From assembly GCA_050732955.1 (NCBI GenBank), contig JBOHRY010000269.1, positions 1 through 36,302 on the forward strand: a DNA stretch of 36,302 nucleotides, in the 5' to 3' direction. Shown here in pieces: positions 4,818 to 36,302 of this stretch. Origin of the DNA: Gemmatimonadales bacterium (lineage in GTDB: Bacteria; Gemmatimonadota; Gemmatimonadetes; Gemmatimonadales; GWC2-71-9). The translations under genes were made by a program, and so were the position numbers. The notes beneath the pieces were generated by a model. The model was given only the letters and a program-made list of their open reading frames with translations. It was not told the origin of the DNA and ran no database searches. Positions within the stretch are counted from its first letter, which is position 1, and each line of letters opens with the position of its first letter.

Positions 4818-6895
4818 TGCCGGTGGTCTTCCTCGTCCCGGCGATTCTGGGCGGCTTGCTGGCGCTTGGCGTGCCATTGCTGTTGCATCTGAGACGGCGG
4901 GAGCGCGAACGACCGATGCGCTTCCCATCACTGATGTTCCTGCAGCGCGTCACGATCAGCACGGCGCGCCGCCGGCGCATTACCGATTGGCCGCTCCTGC
5001 TGGTGCGAGCCCTGATCGTGGCACTGGCGGTGCTGGCATTCGCGCGACCTGTCGTGCGGCCCCACCCAGGTGCCGCGGCGGCGCGCGGCACCCGACGCGT
5101 GGTGCTGCTGGTGGATCGCTCGATGAGCATGGGCCACACCGCTGTCTGGCCAGCGGCCATCGACTCGGCGCGCAGTGTGATCGGGGCATTGGCGCCGGGT
5201 GACCGGGTCGCCGTCATCACGTTCGATGAGGATGCCACGATCGAACAGCCGCTGACCCTCGATCACGCGGCGGCGCTCGCGGCGGTGAACCGGATTCGGC
5301 CTGGAAGTCGCGCGACCCGCTTTGGCTCGGGGATCCGGGCAGCGCGGGAGTTGCTGCTCAAGGAAGCGGATGTGCAGGGCGGCGAGATCGCGATGGTGAC
5401 CGACCTGCAACAGAACGTAACCGCCGGCATCGTGGGCTTGACGCTCCCACCAACGGTCCATCTCCGGGCCATCGACGTCGGCGCGAGACAGCATGGCAGC
5501 GCTGCCGTGGTCGGCGTGGATGTTGAACGTCTTCCTGGCACCGCGGACGCGCCCAACCGGCTCGCCGTGTCGGCGCATATCGCGACGCGGGGATTCGCGG
5601 CACCGCGCAAAGTGCACGTTACGCTCTCAGCCAACGGTCGGTCGAGCGGATCGCGCGAAGTGACGCTGCCAGCCGACGGCAGCACCGCCGCCGCATTCCC
5701 ACCCGTCGCCCTTCCACTTGGCGTGATTCGCTTGGTTGTCTCGATCGATCACGATTCGCTCCGCGCTGACGACGTGTTCAATGTGGTGGTTCCGGCGGAG
5801 CTGGTGCGTCGCGTGGTGATGGTCGTCCCCCGTGATCTCGAACCCGACGAAACACTGTATCTCGAGCGGGCGCTCGCCACGGGGCAGGATCCCGCAATGC
5901 GCGTCGAGCGGCGCAATGCCGCCGGACTCGATGCCGCGACGCTGCGCGATGCGGTTGCCGTCGTGCTCTACGACGTGCCGATGCCGGCAGGATCGAGTGG
6001 CAATGCGCTCGCCGCGTGGGTGCACGACGGCGGCGGCCTGGTGAGCGTAGCCGGGCGCCGGATGGGCGGACGCACCGGCATCGGCGGGCTGCTCCCCGGA
6101 GTCGCTCGCGGGATGGTGGATCGCACGGGTGATCACGGTGGCGTGCTCGGTGCAACCGCGCCCGAGCATCCGATCTTCGCGCCGCTCGGTCGAGCCGGTG
6201 GTGGGCCGCTCGGCGGCACCAGATTTTTTCGGTATCCGAGACTTGTCCCCGCCGCGGATGCGCAGATCGTGGCGCGCTTCGACGATGGATCGCCGGCGCT
6301 GGTCGAGCGCCAGGAGGGCTCCGGGCGCGTCGTGATGACGGCGACGGCACTCGATGCAACGTCCGGGGATTTTCCCCTTCAGCCTGCCTACCTTCCCTTC
6401 GTGAGAGGAATGGTGCTGTATGCGGCCGGGACGGCGGCGGCGCCGCTCTGGCACTCGGCGGGAGATGGATGGGTCGTGCCGCCAGCCGTCCGGAATCCGG
6501 TGGTGAAGACGCCGTCCGGTGCGTTCCTGCGGCCGGATGTCGGTCGGACTCTGAACGCTGTTGCGCTGGACGAGGCCGGCTTCTACACGATGTACGAGGG
6601 CCAGGCCTCCGGCGATCCGCTCGCTGTCGTGGCGGTGAATCCGCCGGCGCTCGAATCGGACCTGACGTCAATCAAGCCGAACGAACTCCTCGTGGGTGTG
6701 GGGCAGGACAGCGTCAAGGCATCGACACTCACCACGGCATCGCTGGCCGAGGCGGAACGACGGCAGCGCATCTGGCGCACTCTGCTGTTGGTTGCTGCCG
6801 CGATGCTTCTGGGTGAGCTGGTGATGACCACTCGCGGCTGGCGTGGCACCGCCGCGAAGTTCGTCGGCACGGCTCCGGACGGGACAGCACCATGA
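4817..6895 (+). CDS. BatA-N-terminal-domain / vWA domain membrane protein
   Basis: N-terminal double-TM BatA-type motif (LGVPLLLHLRRRERERPMRFPSLMFLQRV), vWA MIDAS VVLLVDRSMSMG, and a C-terminal TM (WRTLLLVAAAMLLGELVM). Its ATG overlaps the upstream stop (TGATG). Confidence 0.85.
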   Translation: MPVVFLVPAILGGLLALGVPLLLHLRRRERERPMRFPSLMFLQRVTISTARRRRITDWPLLLVRALIVALAVLAFARPVVRPHPGAAAARGTRRVVLLVDRSMSMGHTAVWPAAIDSARSVIGALAPGDRVAVITFDEDATIEQPLTLDHAAALAAVNRIRPGSRATRFGSGIRAARELLLKEADVQGGEIAMVTDLQQNVTAGIVGLTLPPTVHLRAIDVGARQHGSAAVVGVDVERLPGTADAPNRLAVSAHIATRGFAAPRKVHVTLSANGRSSGSREVTLPADGSTAAAFPPVALPLGVIRLVVSIDHDSLRADDVFNVVVPAELVRRVVMVVPRDLEPDETLYLERALATGQDPAMRVERRNAAGLDAATLRDAVAVVLYDVPMPAGSSGNALAAWVHDGGGLVSVAGRRMGGRTGIGGLLPGVARGMVDRTGDHGGVLGATAPEHPIFAPLGRAGGGPLGGTRFFRYPRLVPAADAQIVARFDDGSPALVERQEGSGRVVMTATALDATSGDFPLQPAYLPFVRGMVLYAAGTAAAPLWHSAGDGWVVPPAVRNPVVKTPSGAFLRPDVGRTLNAVALDEAGFYTMYEGQASGDPLAVVAVNPPALESDLTSIKPNELLVGVGQDSVKASTLTTASLAEAERRQRIWRTLLLVAAAMLLGELVMTTRGWRGTAAKFVGTAPDGTAP

Positions 6896-9800
6896 GCGAA
6901 ATCGCCAGCAACAGAGTCGGGCGAGACGACGCGCTTCAGGCCGCGGTCGCGACGATGCGTAGGAAGTGGCGGATGCGTCGCGTGCTGGAGGGCGGTCCGG
7001 CAATACTCGCTGCGGCACTCGCCGCGCTGCTCGTAGGACTTGCACTGCGGAGCGCACTCGGATCGCCAGCCGCAATCATCATGGCGACTCGGGTGGCCGG
7101 ATACGCGGTCCTGATTGTGGTGGCAGCGTGGTGGATAATCCGGCCCGCCCTGCGGCGCGTCGATGACGAACAGATAGCGTTGTACGTCGAGGAGCAGGCG
7201 CCTGAACTGCGCCAGCTCTTCCTGAGCGCTGTCTACGAACTGGGACATCCCGCGGCGCCCGGAGAATCCCCCGCTCTCCGGCAACGGGTGATCCAGCGCG
7301 CCCTCGACGAGTTCGAACGGCTCGAGCAGGGGACTGCGATCGAGCGGCCCCGCACACGCCGGGCACTCGTGCGACTCGGCGCGCTGGCGCTGGCCGGCGC
7401 TCTGCTCGTCGCCCTCGGGCCTGCGGCGGTTCGCGACAGCGCGCGAATCCTCTTCGTGCCGTGGTCCCGCGCCGCGGCGGCCACCGTGCCGAGTCTGTCA
7501 GTATCGCCGGGCAATGCCAGTGTCCCACGCGGCGCGGCGCTCGATGTCGCCGCGCAATTGCGTGCGCTGCCGGATCGTGGTGCCGAGCTTGTGCTGCGCA
7601 CGGACAGTGCTGCGACATGGATCCGCATTCCCATGGTGCACGACTCGACCGGCACTCGATACGTTGCCCGCATCTTCGACATCAACGAAAACACTCACTA
7701 CTACGTCGAGGCAGGAGGGTTTCGCTCGCCCGAATACCAGGTGAGCGTGACCGATCTGCCGACGGTCAAGCAGTTGTCGCTGGAACTGCGGTACCCGGCC
7801 TACACCGGGCTCGCGCCGCAGAAGATCGAGAACGGCGGTGATGTGGCCGCGGTGACCGGCACCACCGCGGCGGTCAACATCGCGGCCACGCTTCCGGTCA
7901 CAGCGGGCTCGCTCCAGTTCGATGACGGAACCGCCTCGCCGCTCGTGCTGGGAAGCGACGGCCGGCTCACCGGATCATTCAAGGTGACTCACGACGGCTT
8001 CTACCGCGTTGACCTGGTCGCCAGCAATGGCACGAAGGTACCGGGCACGGTGCAGCACTCCGTCGAGGCGCTGGTAGACCATCCACCCACGATCCGGATT
8101 GACAAGCCAGGACGCGACACTCGCATCACTTCGGTGGAAGAGGTTCCCGTCTCGATTCGCGCGAATGACGATTACGGCGTGCGCGACGTGCGGCTCCATT
8201 ACAGCGTCAATGGCGGGAAGGATCAGATCGTGGCCCTGAGCGACAGCGCCCGCCGGGGGAGTCTCGACTTCAGCGCGGTGCACACGATGTTCCTGGAGGA
8301 GATGTCGCTGCACCCGGGCGACCTGATTGCGTACCACGCCACCGCGCGCGATGACGCCGGCAACACCGCCTCGAGTGATATCTACTTCATGGAAGTGCGG
8401 CCCTTCGGGCGGGATTATCGCGCCGCGGAGGACGACGGCGGCGGGGGTGGTGGTGGTGGCGGGAACAATCCTGGACAGTTTACCCAGCGCCAGCGTGAAC
8501 TGATCGCCGGAACGTTCAACTGGCAGCGTGACAGTGCGCGAACCGCTGACCGTGATCGTCGCGCCAACGCGGCAACGCTCGCGATTGCGCAGGGAAAACT
8601 GCACGAGGATGTGACTGTCCAGGCAGAGCGGATGGCCGCTCGCGGCGTGTCCGGGGAAGACAGCGGCTTCGTGGTCGTGCAAGCGGAGCTCGACAGCGCC
8701 GGCCAGGCGATGAAGCCGGCCGAGGATGGGCTCGGGCGGCACGCGATGGGTGATGCGATTCCGGCGCAGGAACAGGCGTTGCAGCACCTGCAGGCCGCCG
8801 ACGCGGCGTATCGCGACATCACGGTACGCCGTGGAGGCAGCGGGGGCGGTGGCGGCGGTGGTGGTAGCGGTGCCAACGCGCAGGATCTGGCCGATCTCTT
8901 CGAGCTGCAGACCGACAAGCTCAAGAACCAGTACGAAGCGCCGCGCGCCGAAGCATCCAGCAGCACGCAGCAGGCGCTGGATTCCACCCAGGAAAAACTG
9001 CGGCAGCTCGCCGCACGCCAGCAGGAAGAGAATGAGCGGCAGCAGCGCATGGCCGATGCGCTTCAGCAGCGCATGGGATCGCAATCCGGGGGCCAACAAC
9101 AGGGCGGCGCCGGTCAGCGCGCCGGTCAGTCGGGCGCAGGACAATCCGGCGGAGGACAAAGCGGTCGTTCGGGCGCGAACGGCACGCGCTCGGCGCAGCA
9201 GCTGTCGCGAGCACCGAGTGGTGGTGGGCAGTCGGGAAGCGCACAACGGGACCTGGCGCGACAAGTCGAAGAGCAGGCGCGGCAGCTCGAGCGCCTCTCG
9301 CGAGACCAGAATTCCGCGGAATTGGCCGAAGCGGCGCGGCGGCTGCAGGAAGCCGCCGATGCGATGCATCAGGCCGCCACTGGCGCAACGCAGCAGGGAA
9401 ACACGGCACTCGACCGGTTGCGTCAGGCATCGCAGAGCATCGAGGGCGCCCAGACTGCGTCCGAAGGAGCGGCGATTCAGGGCCTGGCGCGGCAGGCAGC
9501 CAACCTGGGAGAGCGGCAGCGCGAGATCGCGAAGGATGTCGCCGGGCTCCAGACGATGAACCCGGCCGAACAGGACCAGCGCGCACCGGGACTGATGCAG
9601 CGCAAGGATTCGCTGAGCGACGCGGTGCGCCAGCTCGCCGCCGACGCTGAGCGGGTCGCGCGGCAAACGCGCTCTGATCAGCCCAAGCCGGCCGCGGCGG
9701 CGCAAACCGCCGCCAACGATATTCGCGATCGTCGCGTGCTCGAACAGATCGAGGCGTCGAAGCGGATCATGCGCGCGGGCTCGCCGGAGTACTCGCGAAG

Positions 9801-27379: not shown

Positions 27380-27759
27380 CCAAGACGCAATTGAAGCATC
27401 TGGAGAAGCGCCTGCTCGAAGAGCGGACTCGCGTGATGAAGGAGCTCGGCACGTACGATGAGTCCTTCAATTCGACGCTGCAGGGCGCCGACGGCGATCT
27501 CTCGTCCTACTCGTTTCACATGGCGGATCAGGGGACTGACGCCATGGAACGGGAGAAGCAGTTCCTTTTCGCGTCGCAGGAAGGCCGTTACCTCTGGCAC
27601 ATCAACGAAGCCCTGCGGCGGATGTACAATCAGCCCGATCAATTCGGCAAGTGTCATCAGTGCGGCGCGGAAATCGACTTCGAGCGGCTGGATGCCCTGC
27701 CGCACGCACGACTGTGTATCGCCTGCAAGGAGAAGGAAGAGGATGCCAAGCGCCGATGA
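27376..27759 (+). CDS. DksA/TraR-family C4 zinc-finger protein
   Basis: C-terminal CHQCGAEIDFERLDALPHARLCIACKEKEE (CxxC...CxxC) after a coiled-coil region. Occupies the conserved position between ileS and lspA. GTGA overlap with the ileS stop. Confidence 0.85.
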   Translation: MTKTQLKHLEKRLLEERTRVMKELGTYDESFNSTLQGADGDLSSYSFHMADQGTDAMEREKQFLFASQEGRYLWHINEALRRMYNQPDQFGKCHQCGAEIDFERLDALPHARLCIACKEKEEDAKRR

Positions 27760-28249
27760 GGCGAGCCGGCCGTTCTGGGCGGTGATGACGTTCACCGTCC
27801 TGCTCGACCGGGTGACCAAGGTCATCGCCGAGCGGACGCTGGGCGACAGCGGCGTACCGCTCATCGGCAACGCGGTGCAATTCCGGCTGGTGCACAATCA
27901 GGGCGCGGCCTTCGGCCTCGAACTGGGAATCTGGCAGCGCTGGATCTTCATCGTCATCGCGCTGGTGGCGATCGTCTGGCTGTATCGCGCCGCGAGGCAC
28001 GCGCCCGCCTCCGACCGGCTGCGGCAGCTTGCCGTGGCGTTCGTTGCGGGCGGTGCCGCCGGCAACCTGGTCGACCGGCTGCTCTCGGCGCGCGGCGTGG
28101 TGGATTTCATCGACATCGGCGCCGGCACGTTGCGCTGGCCGACCTTCAATGTCGCCGACATTGCCGTGACGTGCGGTGCCGTCGCACTGGCCTTCTCACT
28201 CTGGCGCGAGGATGCGCGCCGCGTTCCCGTTCCCTCCTCACCTGCCTGA
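27743..28249 (+). CDS. lspA: Lipoprotein signal peptidase (signal peptidase II)
   Basis: DRVTK, FRLVHNQGAAFGL, GGAAGNLVDRL, VVDFIDIG and PTFNVADIAV. The start was set at ATG 27743, not track start 27458. Confidence 0.9.
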   Translation: MPSADEASRPFWAVMTFTVLLDRVTKVIAERTLGDSGVPLIGNAVQFRLVHNQGAAFGLELGIWQRWIFIVIALVAIVWLYRAARHAPASDRLRQLAVAFVAGGAAGNLVDRLLSARGVVDFIDIGAGTLRWPTFNVADIAVTCGAVALAFSLWREDARRVPVPSSPA

Positions 28250-29264
28250 GTCGCCCGCGCCGTCGCTGACGTTCTGCGTCACCGTCGCGCTGACCGAGCG
28301 CATCGATCGCTTCCTTGCCGATCAACTGGGAATGTCCCGCACGCAATCGGCGCGGCTGATTGCTGCGGGATGCGTCGCGATCGACGGCATCTTGGTGCGC
28401 GCGTCACGCGTGCTCGTGCGGGGTGAAGTGGTCGCCATCCAGTTGCCGGAGCAGGAACCCCCGCGTCAGATCACGCCGTCCGATATCGCACTCGACGTGG
28501 TGTACGAAGACGATGCCCTGGCGGTCATCGACAAGCCGGCCGGGTTGGTGGTGCATCCGGCCCCGGGTCACTGGGGCGACACCCTCGTCAACGCGTTGGT
28601 CGCCCGCGGGACGACGCTGTCAGGCGGCGCCGAGGGTCGCCCCGGAATCGTTCACCGGCTCGACCGCGACACCTCCGGCCTGATCATCGTCGCCAAGACG
28701 GACCTGGCGCACCGGCGACTGGCCGGGATGATCGCGGCCCGGCGCGTGGCGAGGGTCTATGCCGCGCTGGTCTGGGGTCACCTCGACCAGAGTCCGCTCA
28801 CGATCGATGCGCCTATCGCCCGCGATCTCCGAGACCGCAAGCGGATGGCGATACTTCCCGGGGGCCGCCGGGCGCAGACCGACGCCTTTGTCATCGCCCG
28901 GCTCGGCTCCGTGGACCTGCTCCGGCTCGAATTGCTGACCGGGAGAACCCATCAGATCCGGGTGCACCTGCAATCGGTCGGTCACCCGGTGGTCGGGGAC
29001 GCCGTCTACGCGGCAGGCGGGGCTCAGCGGATCGGCGGGCCCGCCCGACTCGAGGCCAGGCGGCTGGAATCCCTGGCTCCCAGACAGGCGCTCCATGCCG
29101 CGCTTCTGGCGTTCCGCCACCCGATCAGCGGATCGCCCCTGCGCTTCCGTTCGCCATGGCCAGCCGATCTCTGGCCGCTTCTCGAGGCGGCGGCGGGAGC
29201 TGGGCACTTGAGCACCCGGGAGGAGGCCTTGGCGGCGATGGGGTTCTTCCGTAACGATGACTGA
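28212..29264 (+). CDS. rluD: RluA/RluD-family 23S rRNA pseudouridine synthase
   Basis: S4-like RIDRFLADQLGMSRTQSARLIAAGCVAIDG. Catalytic motif GIVHRLDRDTSGLIIVAKT, then GRTHQIRVHL and LHA. The start at ATG 28212 is tentative because it overlaps the lspA 3' end. Confidence 0.88.
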   Translation: MRAAFPFPPHLPESPAPSLTFCVTVALTERIDRFLADQLGMSRTQSARLIAAGCVAIDGILVRASRVLVRGEVVAIQLPEQEPPRQITPSDIALDVVYEDDALAVIDKPAGLVVHPAPGHWGDTLVNALVARGTTLSGGAEGRPGIVHRLDRDTSGLIIVAKTDLAHRRLAGMIAARRVARVYAALVWGHLDQSPLTIDAPIARDLRDRKRMAILPGGRRAQTDAFVIARLGSVDLLRLELLTGRTHQIRVHLQSVGHPVVGDAVYAAGGAQRIGGPARLEARRLESLAPRQALHAALLAFRHPISGSPLRFRSPWPADLWPLLEAAAGAGHLSTREEALAAMGFFRNDD

Positions 29265-29619
29265 CGGGGCCAAGGCAGTCGAGGGACTGGTGGTGCGCGT
29301 GGCCGGGGTCCAGCGCTACCTGCCAATTGCAAGCGTCATAGAGGTATTGCGAGAAGTGAATATCATCAGGGTCCCCGGCGCTGTTGCCGCGGTCCTGGGG
29401 ATGGTGAATCATCGGGGTCGGGTCATCGCCGTGGCCGATGCGCGCCAGGCGCTAGAACTCATCGGCGATCCGACGACCGGCCGCGACATCGTGGTGGTGC
29501 AGTGGCGGGAGCGGCGATTCGGCGTGGCAGTCGACGCGGTCGTCGAGCTGATGGGTGAGGCGCGCACGGGGCTTGCAGAGATCGACCTGGATCGCATCGC
29601 GGCGGCTGTTTTCGCCTGA
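29257..29619 (+). CDS. cheW: CheW-like coupling protein (short, 120 aa)
   Basis: The pattern matches a CheW domain: LVVRVAGVQRYLPIASVIEVLREVNIIRVPGAVAAVLGMVNHRGRVIAVADARQAL...VVVQWRERRFGVAVDAVVEL. The ATG sits 8 nt inside the rluD 3' end. Confidence 0.8.
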   Translation: MTDGAKAVEGLVVRVAGVQRYLPIASVIEVLREVNIIRVPGAVAAVLGMVNHRGRVIAVADARQALELIGDPTTGRDIVVVQWRERRFGVAVDAVVELMGEARTGLAEIDLDRIAAAVFA

Positions 29620-29629
29620 GGTCTCGAAC

Positions 29630-29635
29630 GGAGGA
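29630..29635 (+). promoter_or_regulatory. Shine-Dalgarno GGAGGA, 4 nt upstream of the cheY GTG
   Basis: cGGAGGAtgctGTG. Confidence 0.5.
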
Positions 29636-29639
29636 TGCT

Positions 29640-30005
29640 GTGGCGCACCGGATCCTGATTTGCGATGACGCGATCTTCATGCGGACGATGATCGCCGACA
29701 TTCTGACCGGCGCCGGCTACGAAATCGCCGGCGAAGCGGAGAGTGGGTTGCAGGCGGTCGAGCGGTACAAGACGCTGAAGCCCGATCTCGTCACCATGGA
29801 TATCGTGATGCCGGACATGGGCGGCATCGACGCGGTCAAGGCGATCGTCGCGGTGGATGCCAAGGCCCGCATCCTGATGTGCAGCGCCATGGGTCAGCAG
29901 TCGCTGGTGGTCGAAGCGATCCAGGCGGGCGCCAAGGACTTCGTGGTCAAACCGTTTCAGCCGGCGCGGGTTCTCGAAGCCGTGCAACGCGTCCTGGGTG
30001 GATGA
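29640..30005 (+). CDS. cheY: CheY-like single-domain response regulator
   Basis: ILICDDAIFMR (acidic pair), DLVTMDIVMPDMGG (phospho-acceptor Asp), MCSAMG and KDFVVKPF (conserved Lys). Confidence 0.9.
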   Translation: MAHRILICDDAIFMRTMIADILTGAGYEIAGEAESGLQAVERYKTLKPDLVTMDIVMPDMGGIDAVKAIVAVDAKARILMCSAMGQQSLVVEAIQAGAKDFVVKPFQPARVLEAVQRVLGG

Positions 30006-31504
30006 CCGACGCCCGGCGCGCGCGTTACGTCGCCCTCTACTCGTCTGAGGCGCGATCGCTGCTGAGCACCGCGCGGCGCGCCCTGGAGCGATGGCAGGAG
30101 CGTCCCGCCGATTCCGAGGCCGGTGAGGAAATCTTCCGGGCGCTGCACACGGTGAAGGGAATGGCGGCGTCGCTCAACTTCACCGCGACCGCCGAGCTGG
30201 TTCACGCCACCGAGACGACGTTGAGCGACGTGCGGCGCGGTGGCGTCCGCGCCACGTCGCAGTGGCTCCGGGAGTTCGAGTCATCGCTCGACGCCATCGC
30301 GCTCTCGTCCGAGGCGGCGATCGTGGGCGCCGGGGGCACCGCTGCGACCGAGCCGGCGCGGCGAACCGGTCCGCGCATCGTTCGCGTCGATCTCGATCGT
30401 CTCGACGCGCTGCTCAGCGATCTCGGCGCGCTGGTGCTGGCGCGACAGGAGCTCGAACGCCGAGCGGAATCCGATCCGTTTTCGCCGATCGCGCACGCCG
30501 CGTGGCAGATGGCGGGCCGGCTGGACGCTCTGCAATCACGGATCCTCGACGTTCGGCTGGCGCCGCTCTCCGAGATCCTGGAGCGCATGCCGCCGCTGGT
30601 GCGGGATCTCGCGCGCCAGCTCCGGAAGGAGGTCACGATCGAAGTAACCGGCGAGTCGCTCGAAGTCGATCGTGCCATCCTTGATCAACTCGCCGATCCG
30701 CTGCTGCACCTGCTGCGCAACGCGGTGGATCACGGGCTCGAATCGCCGGAGGCGCGGCGCGCCGCAGGCAAGCGCAGCGCCGGCAAGATCGCGGTGTCCG
30801 CACGGCAGGATGGCGACGCCGTGGTGCTCGAAATCGCTGACGACGGCCGCGGGGTGGATCGCGAGCTGGTCGCCGAGCGCGCGCGAGCCATGGGGATCCT
30901 GGCGCCGGGCGCCGTGTTGAGTGACGATGGCCTGCTCGCGGTGCTGGAGCGGCCCGGGTTCAGCACGGCCGATCGCGTCACCGAGGTGTCGGGTCGCGGG
31001 GTCGGGCTCGATGTAGTGGTCGCGCGAATGCGCGAAGTCGGCGCCGCGCTCACGTTGACGACCGTCGTGGGTCATGGAACCGTCTTCAGCATTCGCCTGC
31101 CGACGAGGCTCGGTATCGTGCGGGCGCTGGTGACCGGGATTGGCGACGAGCGGTACGTCATGCCGATGACGCATGTGGTGGAACTGGTTGCCTGGCAATC
31201 CGACCTGGTGTCGCAGCGCGACGGTCGCGCGGTCCTGATGGTTCGCGACGAGGCGCTGCCGATCGTCGACCTGCGCCGGCTGCTGCAGTATCGCGGTGCC
31301 GAGCCGCCGGCACGGAGGCCGGCGGTCATCGTCGAGGCGAATGGCCAGCGAGTGGCACTCCTGGCGGATGCCGTGCTGGGTCAGGTCGACGCCGTCGTGC
31401 AGGCAATCGACCGGCCGAACGGGATGGCGCGATGGCTGACCGGTGCGACCGTTCTGGACGACGGCCGGCCGGCGTTGTTGATGGATCTGGCGAGCGTGGT
31501 GTAG
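30002..31504 (+). CDS. cheA: Chemotaxis histidine kinase CheA (P1-P3-P4-P5 architecture, apparently no P2)
   Basis: Hpt H-box FRALHTVKGMAASL; dimerisation segment IVRVDLDRLDALLSDLGALV; N-box LLHLLRNAVDHGLE; G1 DDGRGVD; G2 SGRGVGLDVV; C-terminal CheW-like domain. The start was set at ATG 30002 (ATGA overlap with the cheY stop). Confidence 0.9.
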   Translation: MTDARRARYVALYSSEARSLLSTARRALERWQERPADSEAGEEIFRALHTVKGMAASLNFTATAELVHATETTLSDVRRGGVRATSQWLREFESSLDAIALSSEAAIVGAGGTAATEPARRTGPRIVRVDLDRLDALLSDLGALVLARQELERRAESDPFSPIAHAAWQMAGRLDALQSRILDVRLAPLSEILERMPPLVRDLARQLRKEVTIEVTGESLEVDRAILDQLADPLLHLLRNAVDHGLESPEARRAAGKRSAGKIAVSARQDGDAVVLEIADDGRGVDRELVAERARAMGILAPGAVLSDDGLLAVLERPGFSTADRVTEVSGRGVGLDVVVARMREVGAALTLTTVVGHGTVFSIRLPTRLGIVRALVTGIGDERYVMPMTHVVELVAWQSDLVSQRDGRAVLMVRDEALPIVDLRRLLQYRGAEPPARRPAVIVEANGQRVALLADAVLGQVDAVVQAIDRPNGMARWLTGATVLDDGRPALLMDLASVV

Positions 31505-31515
31505 GGATCTCAACT

Positions 31516-31520
31516 GGAGG
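31516..31520 (+). promoter_or_regulatory. Shine-Dalgarno GGAGG, 4 nt upstream of the cheC ATG
   Basis: ctGGAGGcacgATG. Confidence 0.5.
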
Positions 31521-31524
31521 CACG

Positions 31525-32145
31525 ATGACCGCAGCGAACGACATTGACACCCTGCGCCACGATGGATTGCGCGAGGTCGCGACGATCGGTGCCGGACACG
31601 CGGCGACGGCGCTGTCGCAGCTCACCAATCGACGCATCATGATCTCGGTGCCGCACGTGCAGCGGATCCACTTCGGCGAGGTGCCCGACCTGGTCTCCGC
31701 GTTCGGTGATCACGTGGCGGTGGTAGCGATGCGGATGCTTGGCGATCTCACGGGGCGGGCGTTGCTGGTCTTCGAAGAATACGATGCGACGCGCCTTTGC
31801 GACCTGATCCTTCGCCGCCCCGCGGGTCCTCCGCGGGCCCTGGGCGAGCTGGAACAATCAGGCCTCAAGGAGGTCGGCAACATCGTGTGCTCGGCGTATC
31901 TCACCGCGCTGAGCAATTTCATGGGGATGATGTTGCTGCCGTCGGTCCCCGCGCTGACGATCGGTCCGACCGATCAGGCAATCGCATCCACGGTGGATCC
32001 TGCCGAAGCGCCAGGCGACCTGGTGTTCTGCGTGGACACGGCGTTTCGCGCCGAGGGCGCGGAGACACCGCTGACGGGAGCGTTCCTGCTGATGCCCGAC
32101 CAGGCATCGGTGCGCGCGATTCTCGAGGCGATCCGGCTCGACTGA
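31525..32145 (+). CDS. cheC: CheC-family CheY-P phosphatase
   Basis: 206 aa with two internal repeats. The second carries an intact E-x2-N-x22-P motif (LKEVGNIVCSAYLTALSNFMGMMLLPSVP). The first reads E-x2-T-x22-P (LREVATIGAGHAATALSQLTNRRIMISVP). Confidence 0.8.
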   Translation: MTAANDIDTLRHDGLREVATIGAGHAATALSQLTNRRIMISVPHVQRIHFGEVPDLVSAFGDHVAVVAMRMLGDLTGRALLVFEEYDATRLCDLILRRPAGPPRALGELEQSGLKEVGNIVCSAYLTALSNFMGMMLLPSVPALTIGPTDQAIASTVDPAEAPGDLVFCVDTAFRAEGAETPLTGAFLLMPDQASVRAILEAIRLD

Positions 32146-32146
32146 C

Positions 32147-33274
32147 ATGGGGTCCGTCGCCTCGGCGGTCGCGGCGCTCCGCCAACGACTCGGCCGCGCG
32201 GACGCCGCAGCGCTCAGCAACTTCGCCTGGTTCGCCGCGCGTCGCGGTGAGCACGACGCGGCGCTGGAAGCCGCACGGGCCGCGGTGGCGCTTCCCAATG
32301 CTCCGCGCGCCGCGTGGCGATCGCTCGAGCGGCTCGCGGCCGGACGTGTCGACGGAATGCTGCTTACCGCGGGGGGCATCGCGGCGGCGCCCTCGCCACG
32401 ACACGGCAATCCGCTCGCGACGGCGCACGTGGCGCACCGCGAACGGGAATTCGCGGTGGCCGAAGCCTGCTATCGCGCCGCGCTGGATGATGCCGCGCTC
32501 GCGCCGGCCGCGCTCAACGGCATGGGCGTGTTGCACGAGCAGCGGCGTGAACGCGCCGCTGCCGACGAAGCGTGGCGCGGTGCGATCGCTGCCGGCAGCA
32601 TCGCCGCGGTGCACAACCAGGCGCTGGCGCTCCTGCGGCGCGGATTGCCGCACCGCACGCGCGCCGTGCTGACGCCGTGGCTGACGCGCCCGGAGCCGGC
32701 AGCCTCGCTGCAATTCCTGGCCGGATACGCCGCACTCGTGGATGAGGATCCCGCGGCCGCGCTTCCGCTCCTCACCAAGTCGGTAGCGCTCGATCCGGAA
32801 TCGGCGCGGGCGCAATTCAGTCTCGGGCTCGCCTGCGAGCGGCTCGGCATGCACGCCGACGCGCTGGTCGCGATTCGTCGGGCGCTGCTCCTCTCGCCGT
32901 GGTACCAGCCCCAAGCCTGGCTGGTCGAGTCGGGACCGGATGGCCCGGCGGTGGAACTCCCGATGGATCCGGGAGAAGGCGGCCCGGCGACACAGACCGA
33001 CGACGTGCTCCTCTCGCTGGGTCGCTCGCTCCTGCAGACTGCTCATCTCGGCGAGGCGCTCGCGGTCTTCGACCAGGTGCTTGCGGGTCATCCCTCGCAG
33101 ACCGCCGCGCTCTTTCATCGCGGTGTGGTACTCGCCAAGCTCCGGCGATACGACGAGGCACTCGAAGACTGGGAGAGCGTCGGGCGCGTCGATCCCGGCA
33201 GCGAGATCGGCGACGCCAGCCGCCGCCACGCGCGGTCGGCGCGTCAACTCGCGTCCCTCTTCGCCGGGGCGTAG
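32147..33274 (+). CDS. TPR-repeat protein
   Basis: 375 aa with repeated Ala/Leu-rich TPR-like units (for example AEACYRAALDDAALAPAALNGMGVLHEQ, AQFSLGLACERLGMHADALVAIRRALLLSP, ALFHRGVVLAKLRRYDEALEDWESVGRVDP). The ATG is 1 nt after the cheC stop. Confidence 0.75.
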   Translation: MGSVASAVAALRQRLGRADAAALSNFAWFAARRGEHDAALEAARAAVALPNAPRAAWRSLERLAAGRVDGMLLTAGGIAAAPSPRHGNPLATAHVAHREREFAVAEACYRAALDDAALAPAALNGMGVLHEQRRERAAADEAWRGAIAAGSIAAVHNQALALLRRGLPHRTRAVLTPWLTRPEPAASLQFLAGYAALVDEDPAAALPLLTKSVALDPESARAQFSLGLACERLGMHADALVAIRRALLLSPWYQPQAWLVESGPDGPAVELPMDPGEGGPATQTDDVLLSLGRSLLQTAHLGEALAVFDQVLAGHPSQTAALFHRGVVLAKLRRYDEALEDWESVGRVDPGSEIGDASRRHARSARQLASLFAGA

Positions 33275-33276
33275 CG

Positions 33277-34203
33277 ATGCACGGACCGTTGAGCGAAATC
33301 GGCCTGATCGAAGTGTTGCAGCTGCTCGAGCGTGGCCGACGGAGCGGCGCGCTGCACGTCACCGGCGGCGTACCGGAGCGCACCGCGTCCGTGCACCTCC
33401 GCGACGGCGGGATCGTCGCCGTCGACCCCGATGCCGGCGACGATGCGCTGCGTTCGGCTCTGGTCGGCCGATATCTCGCCAGCGAAAGCGAATCGCAGAA
33501 CGATTCCGGGTTGCTCGCCCGCGAGGATGCCACAGCGCTTCGCGAGGAACTCGCCTTGCACGCGCTCGGGACGATGCTGCATTGGCGGGCGGGGCGGTTC
33601 GACTTTCGGTCCAGCAACATTTCCGGTGGTCCGCTGTCGATCTCGCCGGATGCGCTGGTGTTTCAGCTGGTGGAGTCGGAAACACGCCGAGTCGAGCTTT
33701 CCGACGCCACCGTCGGATTCCGCGTCATCCCTGCGTTCGCTGCACCGGAAATCGTGACGCGGGGGGATCCGCCGGCGCTGACACCGCGGGATTGGCGGGT
33801 GCTCGACGTGGTGGATGGCACCCGCGACATCGCGGGCATTGCCGCGGTGCTGGGCGAACCGCTCGAGGACATCGCGGCCCGGGTCCAGTGGCTGGAGGCC
33901 GCCGCTATACTTGAACTCAACCGGCCCGGTCCCGATCTGACCGTCGTGGTGCGTTCGGCGATCGAGGCCGGCCGCTACAACGAGGCCGCCCAGTTGCTTC
34001 AGGTTCGCCTGGCGTCGTATCCGGCGGACGCCGACGCATGGCGTGTGCTCGGTCTGGCCGAGGTCGGAGCGGGTCGCTTCGAGCGCGCGATCGAGGCCTG
34101 GCAAAGCTGGCGTGCCAGCGATCCCGAGCACGCGGGCGATGCGGTGGAACTGATGCAGGCGGCTCGTACCATGGTGGAGGCTCTCCGCGACTCCCGTGAC
34201 TGA
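33277..34203 (+). CDS. PATAN/DUF4388-domain protein with a C-terminal TPR-like region
   Basis: The N-terminus GPLSEIGLIEVLQLLERGRRSGALHVTGG....SVHLRDGGIVAV matches the DUF4388 opening (G.L....l.dvlQll......G.L.v.......i.f.dG.iv.A). The C-terminal part reads EAGRYNEAAQLLQVRLASYPADADAWRVLGLAEVGAGRFERAIEAWQ. The start was set at ATG 33277, 2 nt after the upstream stop; track start 32899 lies inside the previous gene. Confidence 0.72.
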   Translation: MHGPLSEIGLIEVLQLLERGRRSGALHVTGGVPERTASVHLRDGGIVAVDPDAGDDALRSALVGRYLASESESQNDSGLLAREDATALREELALHALGTMLHWRAGRFDFRSSNISGGPLSISPDALVFQLVESETRRVELSDATVGFRVIPAFAAPEIVTRGDPPALTPRDWRVLDVVDGTRDIAGIAAVLGEPLEDIAARVQWLEAAAILELNRPGPDLTVVVRSAIEAGRYNEAAQLLQVRLASYPADADAWRVLGLAEVGAGRFERAIEAWQSWRASDPEHAGDAVELMQAARTMVEALRDSRD

Positions 34204-34951
34204 CATCTCCATTCCCGCGGGATCCCCGTCACAGGGTCTGGCCTTTCTCGAACTTGGTGAGCGGTTGCGGCAGCGCGGACAGTTCGCCGCTGCGGCGACG
34301 GTGGCGCTCGCCGGACTCGCCCACTACCCGGCGGTCGCCGACGCCCATGACCTGCTGGCCCGCATTCGCGTCGATCAGGGCGACGACCCTGCGGCGATTG
34401 CGGCATGGCACGCCGCGCTGGAGTGCGATCCCCTGCACATCGGGGCGCGGAAAGGCCTCGCCTTTGTCGCATTCCGCGCCCGGGATTTCGTCACCGCCGA
34501 ACGACACCTCGAACTGGCGGCAATGCACGCGCCGCACGACACCAGCGTGCTCGCGGCGCTGGATCGGGTGCGTTCCGTCCAGCCGAATGCCGTGGCCGAA
34601 CCGGTGCCGCGGCTCACCGATCCCGGTAGTGGTTTGCTGCTGTACGACCTGCAAGGAATGCGTCTCGCCGGGGGACTCACCGATTCAGGCGACGAAGCGC
34701 TGGCGGACGCAGCCGCCGCCGAAGGCGCCGGTCTCACCCGGGAGACCGAACGCGCAGCGCGATTGCTCGGTCTGGGCCGCCCGCGCCACCTCCTGGTAGA
34801 AACGGCGCAAGCGCGAATCGCCATGGTCCCGGTGAGGTCCGACGCGGCGCTGCTGCTGCACCGCGGCGCCGCGATTCCGATCGGGCGCCTTCTGGCGCTG
34901 GTCAATCGCGCGGCACAAGCGGCGACGCAGTGGCTCGAGTCGATGCGATGA
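34196..34951 (+). CDS. TPR-like N-terminal domain fused to a C-terminal Roadblock/LC7-like domain
   Basis: N-terminal half: ELGERLRQRGQFAAAATVALAGLAHYPAVADAHDLLARI..GDDPAAIAAWHAALECDP. C-terminal half, Roadblock-like: GLLLYDLQGMRLAGGL....AAAEGAGLTRETERAARLLGLGRPRHLLVETAQARIAMVPVRSDAALLL. The GTG start is 8 nt inside the upstream 3' end. Confidence 0.65.
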   Translation: MTDISIPAGSPSQGLAFLELGERLRQRGQFAAAATVALAGLAHYPAVADAHDLLARIRVDQGDDPAAIAAWHAALECDPLHIGARKGLAFVAFRARDFVTAERHLELAAMHAPHDTSVLAALDRVRSVQPNAVAEPVPRLTDPGSGLLLYDLQGMRLAGGLTDSGDEALADAAAAEGAGLTRETERAARLLGLGRPRHLLVETAQARIAMVPVRSDAALLLHRGAAIPIGRLLALVNRAAQAATQWLESMR

Positions 34952-35301
34952 ATCGCAACGCCTGGCAGGAGGCGCTCCGCGAGCTCACCGGCGTTGGCGG
35001 TGTGCTCGGCGCGCTGGTCATCTCGGCGGACGATGGGCTCGTGGTCGAGGAGGCCGCCATCGACGATCTCGCCACCGCCGACGTCGCGGCTCTGTCGGCC
35101 GCGCTGGTTGCGCGCGCCGCACGTTGCACCGGAGCGATGCGAAGCGGACCGCCATCCAGTCTGCACCTCGTCGCCGAATCGGGCACACTCCTGGCCGTCG
35201 CCGGACCGCCCCCGCTCTGGCTCGTGGCCGTCGCGCGCCCGGATGCCGAAGTCGGCCGGTTACGGTTGCTGCTCCGCGATTTTGCCGGCGGACTCGCCTG
35301 A
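34948..35301 (+). CDS. Roadblock/LC7 domain protein (MglB/MglC-like)
   Basis: LRELTGVGGVLGALVISADDGLVVEEAA.......VAALSAALVARA......M..G...SLHLVAESGTLLAVAG.....LVAVARPDAEVGRLRLLLRDF is a classic Roadblock pattern. The ATG 34948 forms an ATGA overlap with the upstream stop; the alternative is GTG 34930. Confidence 0.8.
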   Translation: MNRNAWQEALRELTGVGGVLGALVISADDGLVVEEAAIDDLATADVAALSAALVARAARCTGAMRSGPPSSLHLVAESGTLLAVAGPPPLWLVAVARPDAEVGRLRLLLRDFAGGLA

Positions 35302-35771
35302 TGCGGGTGATCGAGCCGTGGGTGGCGGCACCGCTCACCGAGCTGCTCGGTGAATCAAGTGCGCGACTTGCCTTGATCATGACCAGCTCCGGACAGGTCA
35401 TCGGCCAGCATGGATTCACGCGTTCGCTGGACGTCATGGCGGCGGCCTCGCTGGGCGCGGGGATCCTCGCCACCACCGGTGAATTGGCGCGCACGGTCGG
35501 AGCGCCATCGGGGTTTGGTGCCGTGGTGCACCAGGGTGAGCGGCAGGGTGTGTGGCTCGCCGGTTTTGACACCCCGCGCGGGCGCTGGATCGCGCTGGTG
35601 GTGTTCGGACCCGAATCCTCGATCGGTCTGGTGCGACTCTTTTTCGCGCGATTCGCCGAACAGGTTGCCGCGGCCGCACCGCCACTCGCGCCGATGCGTG
35701 AGGTGCTGGCTGAAGGCTTCGAGCGCGAACTGGACCAGTCATTGCGCGCGCTCTTCGGAGCGAACACCTGA
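35301..35771 (+). CDS. Roadblock/LC7-like protein with a C-terminal helical extension (MglB-like, directly coupled to the GTPase gene)
   Basis: LLGESSARLALIMTSSGQVIGQHGF....DVMAAASLGAGILATTGELARTVG......VVHQGERQGVWLAGFDTPRGRWIALVVFGPESSIGLVRLF, followed by a tail of about 40 aa. The start was set at ATG 35301 (TGATG overlap); track start 35124 lies inside the previous gene. Its stop overlaps the GTPase ATG (TGATG at 35769-35773). Confidence 0.65.
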   Translation: MRVIEPWVAAPLTELLGESSARLALIMTSSGQVIGQHGFTRSLDVMAAASLGAGILATTGELARTVGAPSGFGAVVHQGERQGVWLAGFDTPRGRWIALVVFGPESSIGLVRLFFARFAEQVAAAAPPLAPMREVLAEGFERELDQSLRALFGANT

Positions 35772-36302
35772 TGGCGCGTCTCAACCCCGATCGTCGGGAA
35801 CTTGGAGCGTCGTTGGTGGTCTACGGCGCGCCCAAGTCCGGCAAGACTGCGATTCTTCATTGCATCCGGGAGCGTGTGGCCCCGGAACGGCGCGGCGGAT
35901 TCGAACCGTTTGGCAGCGACGCCGGCGTCGCACCTCTGCTCGACTGGATTCCGCTCGATCTGGGCGCGATCGGCGGCTGGCAGGTACGCGTCGACCTCTA
36001 CGCGATTCCTGATCAGCGCCACGCCGACGCGACCCGCCGGATGATTCTCTCCGATGCCGACGGAGTCCTCTTCATCGGCGACGCGCAGGCGGCGCGGCTG
36101 AGCGACAATCTCGGCGCCGTGGCCAGCCTGCGCGAGAATCTTGAGGCGCTCGACGGGCGCCGTCCCGATCTCCCGACGGTGTACGCCTACTCCAAGTCCG
36201 ATCTTCCGGGCGACTTGCTGCTCGGTCGCGACGCGCTCAATCAGGCGCTCAATCCGCGCGGATTCCCGGATTTCGCCTGCAGCGCCTTGCGCGGTGAAGG
36301 GG
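35771..36302 (+). CDS. MglA-like Ras-superfamily small GTPase, 3'-partial (runs off the window); absent from the supplied ORF track
   Basis: My own translation from ATG 35771: MARLNPDRRELGASLVVYGAPKSGKTAILHCIRERVAPERRGGFEPFGSDAGVAPLLDWIPLDLGAIGGWQVRVDLYAIPDQRHADATRRMILSDADGVLFIGDAQAARLSDNLGAVASLRENLEALDGRRPDLPTVYAYSKSDLPGDLLLGRDALNQALNPRGFPDFACSALRGEG. There is no stop before the window end. It has a P-loop GAPKSGKT and appears to align without gaps to my recollection of Myxococcus MglA (IVYYGPGLCGKTT ... [26 protein letters not shown] ... VDGVVFVADSQ ... YNKRDL). Confidence 0.8.
   Translation, partial: MARLNPDRRELGASLVVYGAPKSGKTAILHCIRERVAPERRGGFEPFGSDAGVAPLLDWIPLDLGAIGGWQVRVDLYAIPDQRHADATRRMILSDADGVLFIGDAQAARLSDNLGAVASLRENLEALDGRRPDLPTVYAYSKSDLPGDLLLGRDALNQALNPRGFPDFACSALRGEG

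Follow-up and report, generated by a model that had tools for sequence, protein, structure and literature searches.

The window analyzed here, the whole of the 36,302-nucleotide contig C269 from a Gemmatimonadales bacterium (GenBank assembly GCA_050732955.1, contig JBOHRY010000269.1), ends inside a gene for an MglA-family GTPase, g1div, that follows directly on a gene for an MglB-like Roadblock protein (MglB2). Among bacterial Ras-like switches, MglA/MglB serves as the model, and an arginine finger and a Gly–Gln pair are kept in all Group 1 members of the MglA family described so far. The window protein belongs to the MglA family by descent and fold, yet its catalytic motifs match those of none of the described groups. 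Synteny and phylogeny show the gene to be the positional orthologue of a canonical MglA paralogue, MglA2, and mark it as genus-specific and fast-evolving after what appears to be a lineage-specific loss of catalytic residues. Probably, the protein binds guanine nucleotide, has weak GTP-hydrolyzing activity or none, and remains a partner of MglB2, which is well conserved.

Results

The GTPase gene and its complete length

The GTPase open reading frame (ORF) begins with an ATG at 35771; positions 35771–36301 give 177 codons, followed by one further base, with no stop up to the last base of the window. The window being the entire contig, the ORF stays open at its 3′ end. The source assembly consists of 408 contigs and is 72% complete, and another of its contigs, C28 (locus L049), starts GGGGTGCTGGAAGCA. 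A 4-nucleotide GGGG overlap between the two contigs (window 36299–36302; L049 1–78) keeps the reading frame, and the continuation is VLEALHALIVLVMRALAPARSERA-stop, 24 codons, whose encoded tail matches the C terminus of P0001, a full-length orthologue that is 91% identical. We infer from frame and homology that C269 and C28 abut inside the GTPase gene and that the complete protein has 201 residues, the 4-nucleotide overlap alone being no proof. An earlier reading of this stretch from its letters (hereafter, the sequence-only reading) had picked out the gene as an open-ended fragment, which the C28 tail now extends to the putative full-length ORF. Length is constant across the family of this GTPase (198–204 residues). 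At its 5′ end, the ATG overlaps by one base the TGA that terminates the MglB-like gene upstream (TGATG, 35769–35773), and the same stop/start overlap is found at the preceding gene junction, upstream of the MglB-like gene. The gene and its motifs are as follows.

35771–36302, + strand: divergent MglA-family GTPase (g1div, orthologue of MglA2), first 177 codons of 201, open 3′ end
35825–35848, + strand: G1/P-loop GAPKSGKT (G19–T26; MglA GPGLCGKT), with G19, G24, K25, and T26 kept
35906–35944, + strand: switch I, residues 46–58, PFGSDAGVAPLLD, with Arg53 replaced by Val and Thr54 by Ala
35999–36016, + strand: G3/switch II YAIPDQ (Y77–Q82; MglA YTVPGQ), with T78 replaced by Ala and G81 by Asp, Gln82 kept
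36191–36202, + strand: G4 SKSD (S141–D144; MglA NKRD), family pattern [T/N/S]KxD, Lys and Asp invariant

Alignment with MglA and predicted fold

Homology and fold both show the window protein to be a member of the MglA family. A phmmer search against all sequences in the Protein Data Bank (PDB) gave significant matches to MglA only (Myxococcus xanthus MglA, E ~1e-25; Thermus thermophilus MglA, E 1e-22), and the protein is 33–36% identical to these two. The phmmer alignment to M. xanthus MglA is gapless over residues 2–103, with the first indel beyond residue ~150, and MglA numbering therefore transfers directly to the window protein. The sequence-only reading had proposed an MglA-like GTPase at 35771–36302 from a by-eye alignment that looked gapless; the PDB and Foldseek matches to MglA bear out the assignment, the phmmer alignment bears out the absence of gaps, and all of the residues that it named (the P-loop, the catalytic Gln, switch I, YAIPDQ, and SKSD) are correct in the phmmer register. 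To these we add the replacement of G21 by Pro and of T78 by Ala, the presence of a canonical MglA elsewhere in the genome, and positional orthology to the canonical MglA2 paralogue.

In the P-loop, the equivalent of Ras Gly12 (G21 in MglA) is Pro21, and the equivalent of Gly13 is Lys22. In switch I, V53–A54 (35927–35932) occupy the place of the Arg finger R53 and the Mg-binding T54 of MglA; P46, G48, L57, and D58 of this segment are conserved within the family, as is W59 just outside it. An alignment in which hidden indels restore the Arg or Thr, a possibility that the by-eye comparison had left standing, was rejected: residues 46–57 (PFGSDAGVAPLL) contain zero Arg and zero Thr, so the motif cannot be rescued, and HMMER, MAFFT, and Foldseek give the same register. 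Scans of the GTPase with Pfam and NCBIfam models returned sub-threshold matches only (DO-GTPase2 and AAA_16). These weak scores are uninformative, since even the genome's canonical MglA hardly registers with Pfam (Arf model, 23.6 bits).

An AlphaFold2 model of P0001, built from an 86-sequence alignment, has a predicted local distance difference test score (pLDDT) of 84.8 and a predicted template modeling score (pTM) of 0.84. When this model was compared with the PDB by Foldseek, the top 14 matches were all MglA, with query TM-scores (TMq) of 0.75–0.84 (best 6izw_A, 0.84), and KRAS scored ~0.67. Model confidence is low exactly in the switches, with residues 45–55 below a pLDDT of 50 and switch II at ~63.

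Constraint across the divergent family

A protein search returned 92 homologue clusters, source-named Gemmatimonadales or Gemmatimonadota, which were aligned with MglA; counts below are out of 93. The substitutions are common to 92 independent homologue clusters and are therefore not the sequencing or assembly noise that the sequence-only reading had entertained. Invariant or nearly so in the family are G19, G24, K25, T/S26, D58, W59, K142, and D144. Position 53 is Val, Ala, Gly, Leu, or one of several others, with Arg in none of the 92 clusters, and position 54 is Ala, Gly, Asp, or Val, with Thr in one sequence only. Position 21 is Pro, Ala, Arg, or Ser, and position 22 carries a basic residue (Lys or Arg) in 81/93. 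In switch II, position 78 is Ala in 87/93; position 81 is Asp (52), Ala, Leu, Gly (7/93), Ser, Pro, or Met; and position 82 is Gln in 64/93, the rest having Val, Glu, Arg, Thr, His, Asp, or Leu. The first G4 residue is Thr (66), Asn (18), or Ser (7), and the Lys and Asp of the motif are invariant. SKSD is thus a minor variant, on which the sequence-only reading had placed too much weight. TKxD works in Rac1 and Cdc42.

Residues that are invariant in the two canonical paralogues, MglA1 and MglA2, yet free in the divergent family include E10, C13, G21, N28, T49, R53, T54, T72, and G81. The newly fixed residues include K14T, S46P, A48G, F57L, F59W, F70W, F74V, T78A, and K90R, and none of them is an obvious catalytic substitute. 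On the family tree, both G21 and R53 disappeared a single time, along the divergent clade's stem, and the residue identity at positions 21 and 53 later changed 14–15 times. The state of G81 changed at least 4 times, Q82 was lost at least 5 times, and the basic residue at position 22 was lost at least 7 times within the family. Some divergent members still have YAVPGQ, keeping G81–Q82 (e.g. L032).

The ratio of nonsynonymous to synonymous substitution rates (dN/dS, NG86) of the GTPase gene is 0.06 against its closest relative and 0.16–0.19 in three more distant congener pairs; that of its MglB-like neighbor is 0.05–0.08 in the same pairs. The GTPase gene is thus under purifying selection, less tight than that on its MglB-like partner. 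Pseudogenization was considered and is rejected by dN/dS values well below 1 and by the constant length.

Paralogues and origin of the divergent copy

The genome from which the window derives also holds a canonical mglB–mglA pair on contig C82. Its MglA1 is a protein of 224 residues with the motifs GPGLGGKT, ERT, YTVPGQ, and NKRD, and it is 74% identical to M. xanthus MglA by genome search and 70% in the MAFFT alignment. Throughout the order, MglA1 (in this genome, locus L022, C82, 291–965, − strand) has 224–225 residues and carries an insertion of ~30 residues (NPGWPVEDADRQKLTPDPYRPGEYLVKEVDGVWVERVP...) ahead of the G5 region.

Among 31 related genomes searched, those of the window's genus have MglA1 and the divergent copy (30–41% identical to M. 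xanthus MglA), and no canonical MglA2 was found in the genus; two other sampled families of the order (f2 and f3) have MglA1 and a second paralogue that is 56–62% identical to M. xanthus MglA. Outside the genus, the GTPase slot of the gene cluster described below is occupied by canonical MglA2, with GPGRSGKT, DRT, YTVPGQ (YAVPGQ in L040), and NKQD (NKQG in L041), and these slot-resident proteins are 55–59% identical to M. xanthus MglA. Across 201 sampled genomes of the phylum, the window protein has matches of ≥43% identity only within its genus, in 9/9 sampled genomes including its own; outside the genus, the best match has 33–42% identity.

In maximum-likelihood trees, the divergent clade joins MglA2 with a Shimodaira–Hasegawa-like approximate likelihood ratio test (SH-aLRT) value of 100, whether or not 30 unrelated MglA-domain representatives, taken from a 1.8-billion-protein library, are added. 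The stem of the clade measures 2.33 changes per site. Its end branches span 0.06–1.3, compared with 0–0.1 in same-genus MglA1, and internally, too, its branches exceed those of same-genus MglA1 many times in length. Six degenerate database representatives also join the divergent clade. That no canonical MglA2 was found in the genus, taken together with synteny and the tree, points to degeneration in place, not to a third paralogue or to replacement by transfer.

Another degenerate class of N-terminal MglA domains came to light among the library representatives (P0100 and P0104, 384 and 524 residues). These read GPARSGKT, NRT, YA[IV]PYI, and NKSD, with the Arg–Thr pair kept and the Gly–Gln pair absent. 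The nearest MglA-like representatives are mostly N-terminal domains of proteins of 300–970 residues.

Gene cluster and partner genes

The GTPase gene stands in a co-linear cluster with the order CheW–CheY–CheA–CheC, TPR, PATAN/TPR, TPR-Roadblock, Roadblock, MglB-like, GTPase, double DnaA-like AAA+ ATPase, and PATAN/TPR. Its genes other than the GTPase are located as follows.

29257–32145, + strand: CheW, CheY, CheA, and CheC genes, head of the same co-linear cluster
32147–33274, + strand: TPR protein
33277–34203, + strand: PATAN (DUF4388)–TPR protein (Pfam DUF4388, E 1.3e-12)
34196–34951, + strand: TPR–Roadblock fusion (Pfam TPR_2, 29.8 bits; Robl_LC7, 22.9 bits, just below the cut-off of 23)
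34930–35301, + strand: minimal Roadblock/LC7 protein (Pfam Robl_LC7, 29.1 bits; cut-off 23)
35301–35771, + strand: MglB-like Roadblock protein (MglB2, 156 residues; PDB MglB, E 1e-9), translationally coupled to the GTPase
C28 of the same genome (L049) 86–2098, L036 10191–12194, and L033 10990–12936: double DnaA-like gene

Window genes were mapped by tblastn onto 6 congeners and, outside the genus, onto 8 further genomes. All 6 congeners have the cluster in co-linear order, and it was found in 7/8 of the outside genomes; it is co-linear in 6 of those 7, and one is without the Roadblock genes. The class-level genome L044 gave a canonical MglA match only and no cluster. In L043 (G117:C13, another family; 6566–8266), canonical MglA2 comes directly after PATAN/TPR, with no detectable TPR-Roadblock, Roadblock, or MglB-like genes between. 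In two congeners (L034 8374–9125 and L035 8274–10295), the TPR-Roadblock, PATAN/TPR, and TPR genes give split tblastn matches in different frames, which may be frameshifts or assembly errors.

The MglB-like partner scores 28 bits with the NCBIfam MglB model, under the cut-off, and is 37% identical to the canonical MglB of the genome. Among congeners, MglB2 is 75–82% identical, compared with 47–67% for the GTPase, and ranks among the better-conserved genes of the cluster. Its architecture, including a TPRGRW insertion, is the same in genera with a canonical and in those with a degenerate GTPase. No genus-specific Arg or Gln able to act in trans was seen in MglB2, the only one of the three Roadblock proteins to be so examined.

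A two-domain Bac_DnaA-type AAA+ protein of 648–670 residues (Pfam E 1.8e-87) is encoded 8–80 nucleotides after the GTPase and is followed by a 540-residue PATAN/TPR protein. The order GTPase, double DnaA-like, PATAN/TPR is conserved across the order, and it gives an MglA/MglB module a DnaA-like ATPase as an unexplained partner. At the other end, directly upstream of cheW (window 27458–29264), lie genes for lipoprotein signal peptidase II and an RluA-type pseudouridine synthase. No methyl-accepting chemotaxis protein gene was seen beside the che core within the window.

Discussion

In MglA of T. thermophilus and M. xanthus, Thr54 and Gly81 contact the γ-phosphate, Arg53 is the intrinsic finger, Gln82 positions the water, and MglB merely orients these catalytic residues of MglA (PMC3199381). 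In MglA substituted by G21V, R53A, or Q82A, hydrolysis, intrinsic as well as MglB-stimulated, is strongly reduced or abolished, and the affinity for MglB is unchanged (PMC3199381). By alignment, the window protein carries natural equivalents of two of those mutations together with loss of both γ-phosphate sensors, and the wider divergent family tolerates the loss of Gln82 too. Phe57 and Phe59, which in the GTP state of MglA are exposed to contact MglB (PMC3199381), are fixed as Leu and Trp in the divergent family. MglA binds GDP ~100-fold better than GTP (PMC3199381). The window protein may rest with either GTP or GDP bound; the lost contacts would weaken GTP binding further.

In the probable course of events, Gly21, Arg53, Thr54, and Thr78 were lost on the stem branch leading to the genus, and Gly81 and Gln82 were lost later and repeatedly. 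Purifying selection held Asp58, the KxD motif of guanine recognition, and the Lys and Thr/Ser of the P-loop fixed. The outcome would be a GTPase without the canonical loaded-spring switch, acting as a static nucleotide-loaded partner of MglB2 and the Roadblock proteins in a Che-PATAN pathway and not as a switch timed by a GTPase-activating protein (GAP), while the separate canonical MglA1/MglB1 pair would stay an ordinary cycling switch. Catalytic motifs are lost and nucleotide-binding motifs kept, a sequence pattern that belongs to the pseudo-GTPase class. The sequence-only reading had suggested that the protein may be a pseudo-GTPase, a constitutively bound form, or a GTPase with an altered cycle, a suggestion that fits the free catalytic and fixed binding positions and the published MglA mutants. 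Its further suggestion, that the protein depends on its Roadblock partners in a new way, found no positive support, given an MglB2 architecture that is the same beside canonical GTPases and has no genus-specific Arg. With somewhat less than even confidence, we propose a bacterial pseudo-GTPase that evolved naturally: one genus would have converted an MglA/MglB polarity-switch module on a Che-PATAN-Roadblock pathway into an adaptor that no longer hydrolyzes GTP and stays permanently loaded with nucleotide, with MglB repurposed from a GAP to a stable binding, exchange, or effector subunit.

Several observations weigh against the main reading, of a protein that binds nucleotide and hydrolyzes little or no GTP. 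Gln82 is present here and in ~70% of the family, as is a Lys or Arg at position 22 of the P-loop in many members, such that residual or differently assisted hydrolysis is possible. MglB2 is under strong purifying selection, which is unexpected if there is no GTPase for it to activate; its high conservation suggests that MglB2 has a role beyond GAP activity. A non-Gly residue at position 21 tends to accompany loss of mglB, as in Bdellovibrio (PMC3983030). The model, being of low confidence in the switch regions, is silent on switch geometry, and the long branch of the clade leaves its exact position in the tree less sure than the support values imply.

The Gln82 and the basic P-loop residue lead to a different view of the protein, namely that its GTPase activity persists through other catalytic groups, whether a Lys/Arg22 finger in cis or a residue donated in trans by one of the three Roadblock/TPR partners, with Gln82 positioning the water. 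We consider this unlikely. Position 22, basic in 81/93, corresponds to Ras Gly13, presumably the same P-loop position as that of the catalytic arginines of GBP1 (R48) and atlastin (R77); Gln82 is found in 64/93; and MglB2 is both strongly conserved and translationally coupled to the GTPase. However, Arg22 is already found in the canonical MglA2 of sister genera, making it ancestral and not compensatory, and the family has dispensed with the basic residue at least 7 times and with Gln82 at least 5 times. The candidacy of K/R22 as a relocated arginine finger was downgraded on these two grounds, ancestry and repeated loss. Nor is any newly fixed residue of the family a plausible catalytic group, and MglB2 has no genus-specific Arg or Gln to offer. 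Moreover, a finger normally cannot gain access when the Gly12 position holds a residue other than Gly (PMC3199381, G21V).

It is also conceivable that the divergent gene did not evolve in place and that canonical MglA2 was replaced by transfer from a distant lineage. The very long stem (2.33 changes per site) would be in keeping with such an event, as would an identity to MglA2 (36–42%) that is no higher than that to some unrelated MglA-domain representatives (35–45%). Transfer is nonetheless highly improbable, considering that the slot filled by the gene is exactly that of MglA2, with MglB2 on one side and the double DnaA-like gene on the other, that it groups with MglA2 at an SH-aLRT of 100 even when the 30 outside representatives are included, that in the 201-genome sample of the phylum such matches are confined to this genus (the six degenerate representatives of unchecked origin in the clade aside), and that intermediate members, such as L032 with YAVPGQ, keep G81–Q82. 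Very unlikely indeed is the idea that no nucleotide is bound at all, whether the protein is a pure scaffold or its gene is decaying. A near-invariance of G19, G24, K25, T/S26, K142, and D144 in 92 clusters, a constant length of 198–204 residues, and a dN/dS of 0.06–0.19 all speak against it. The failure of any Pfam or NCBIfam GTPase model to exceed its cut-off might be taken in its favor, but such weak scores are normal for MglA, as the 23.6 bits of the canonical protein of this genome with the Arf model illustrate; in its favor, too, are an evolution much faster than that of same-genus canonical MglA and faster than that of the other cluster genes compared, and the low confidence of the switch regions in the model.

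If the protein is indeed an adaptor, the canonical orthologues of sister genera would serve as a ready-made evolutionary control. The clade has discarded its catalytic machinery and kept its nucleotide-binding residues and a GAP-type partner, and unaltered orthologues sit in the same cluster of neighboring genera. The two would thus form a natural before-and-after pair for asking which functions other than GAP activity MglB-type Roadblock proteins have and by what route pseudo-GTPases originate. Literature searches of a paper library found no description of this divergent clade. The finding is also relevant to annotation, with members of the family now carrying MglA, generic GTPase, or SRP receptor β names ('gliding-motility protein MglA', 'GTPase domain-containing protein', and 'SRP receptor beta subunit' in current databases).

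Comparison with known systems

The described MglA proteins fall into groups by their motifs, Group 1 being marked by Arg-Thr in G2, the Arg being present in all members, and by TVPGQ in G3, and Groups 2–5 by Thr-Thr and GTPGQ (Wuichet & Sogaard-Andersen 2014, PMC4316618). The window protein resembles the Group 1 proteins of M. xanthus and T. thermophilus in its fold, its P-loop GxxxxGKT, Asp58, the hydrophobic β2 face, and KxD (PMC4316618, PMC3199381). It also resembles them in having an MglB-type Roadblock gene directly upstream and in its descent from a paralogue with every Group 1 motif. GAPKSGKT matches the Group 1 G1 consensus GxxxxGK[ST], whereas the Ser of SKSD lies outside the written G4 consensus [NT]KxD, with the functional Lys and Asp kept. 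Unlike Group 1 proteins, it is without Arg53–Thr54, Thr78, Gly81, and Gly21, and its clade evolves far faster than canonical MglA of the same genus.

With the proteins of Groups 2–5 (the conservon GTPases CvnD/MfpB and their relatives), the window protein shares the lack of a switch-I Arg finger and a coupling to Roadblock proteins, of which there are sometimes two per GTPase in those groups. Those groups keep a Thr-Thr G2 and a GTPGQ G3, however, and the window protein has neither and branches within Group 1-type sequences. Eukaryotic pseudo-GTPases (such as Rnd, RhoH, and RGK) have a Ras-like fold in which the nucleotide-binding motifs are kept and Gly12, Gln61, or the switches are substituted, and they are thought to be static binders. 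The window protein differs from them in being bacterial, derived from MglA, and paired with a Roadblock GAP homologue.

Bdellovibrio bacteriovorus provides a further parallel, its MglA having a natural non-Gly residue at position 21 (Ser21) and having been proposed to stay bound to GTP permanently (Milner et al. 2014, PMC3983030). Bdellovibrio MglA keeps Arg53, Thr54, and the Gly–Gln pair and has lost mglB; in the Gemmatimonadales protein described here, by contrast, far more of the catalytic apparatus is gone, and the MglB-like partner is kept and well conserved.

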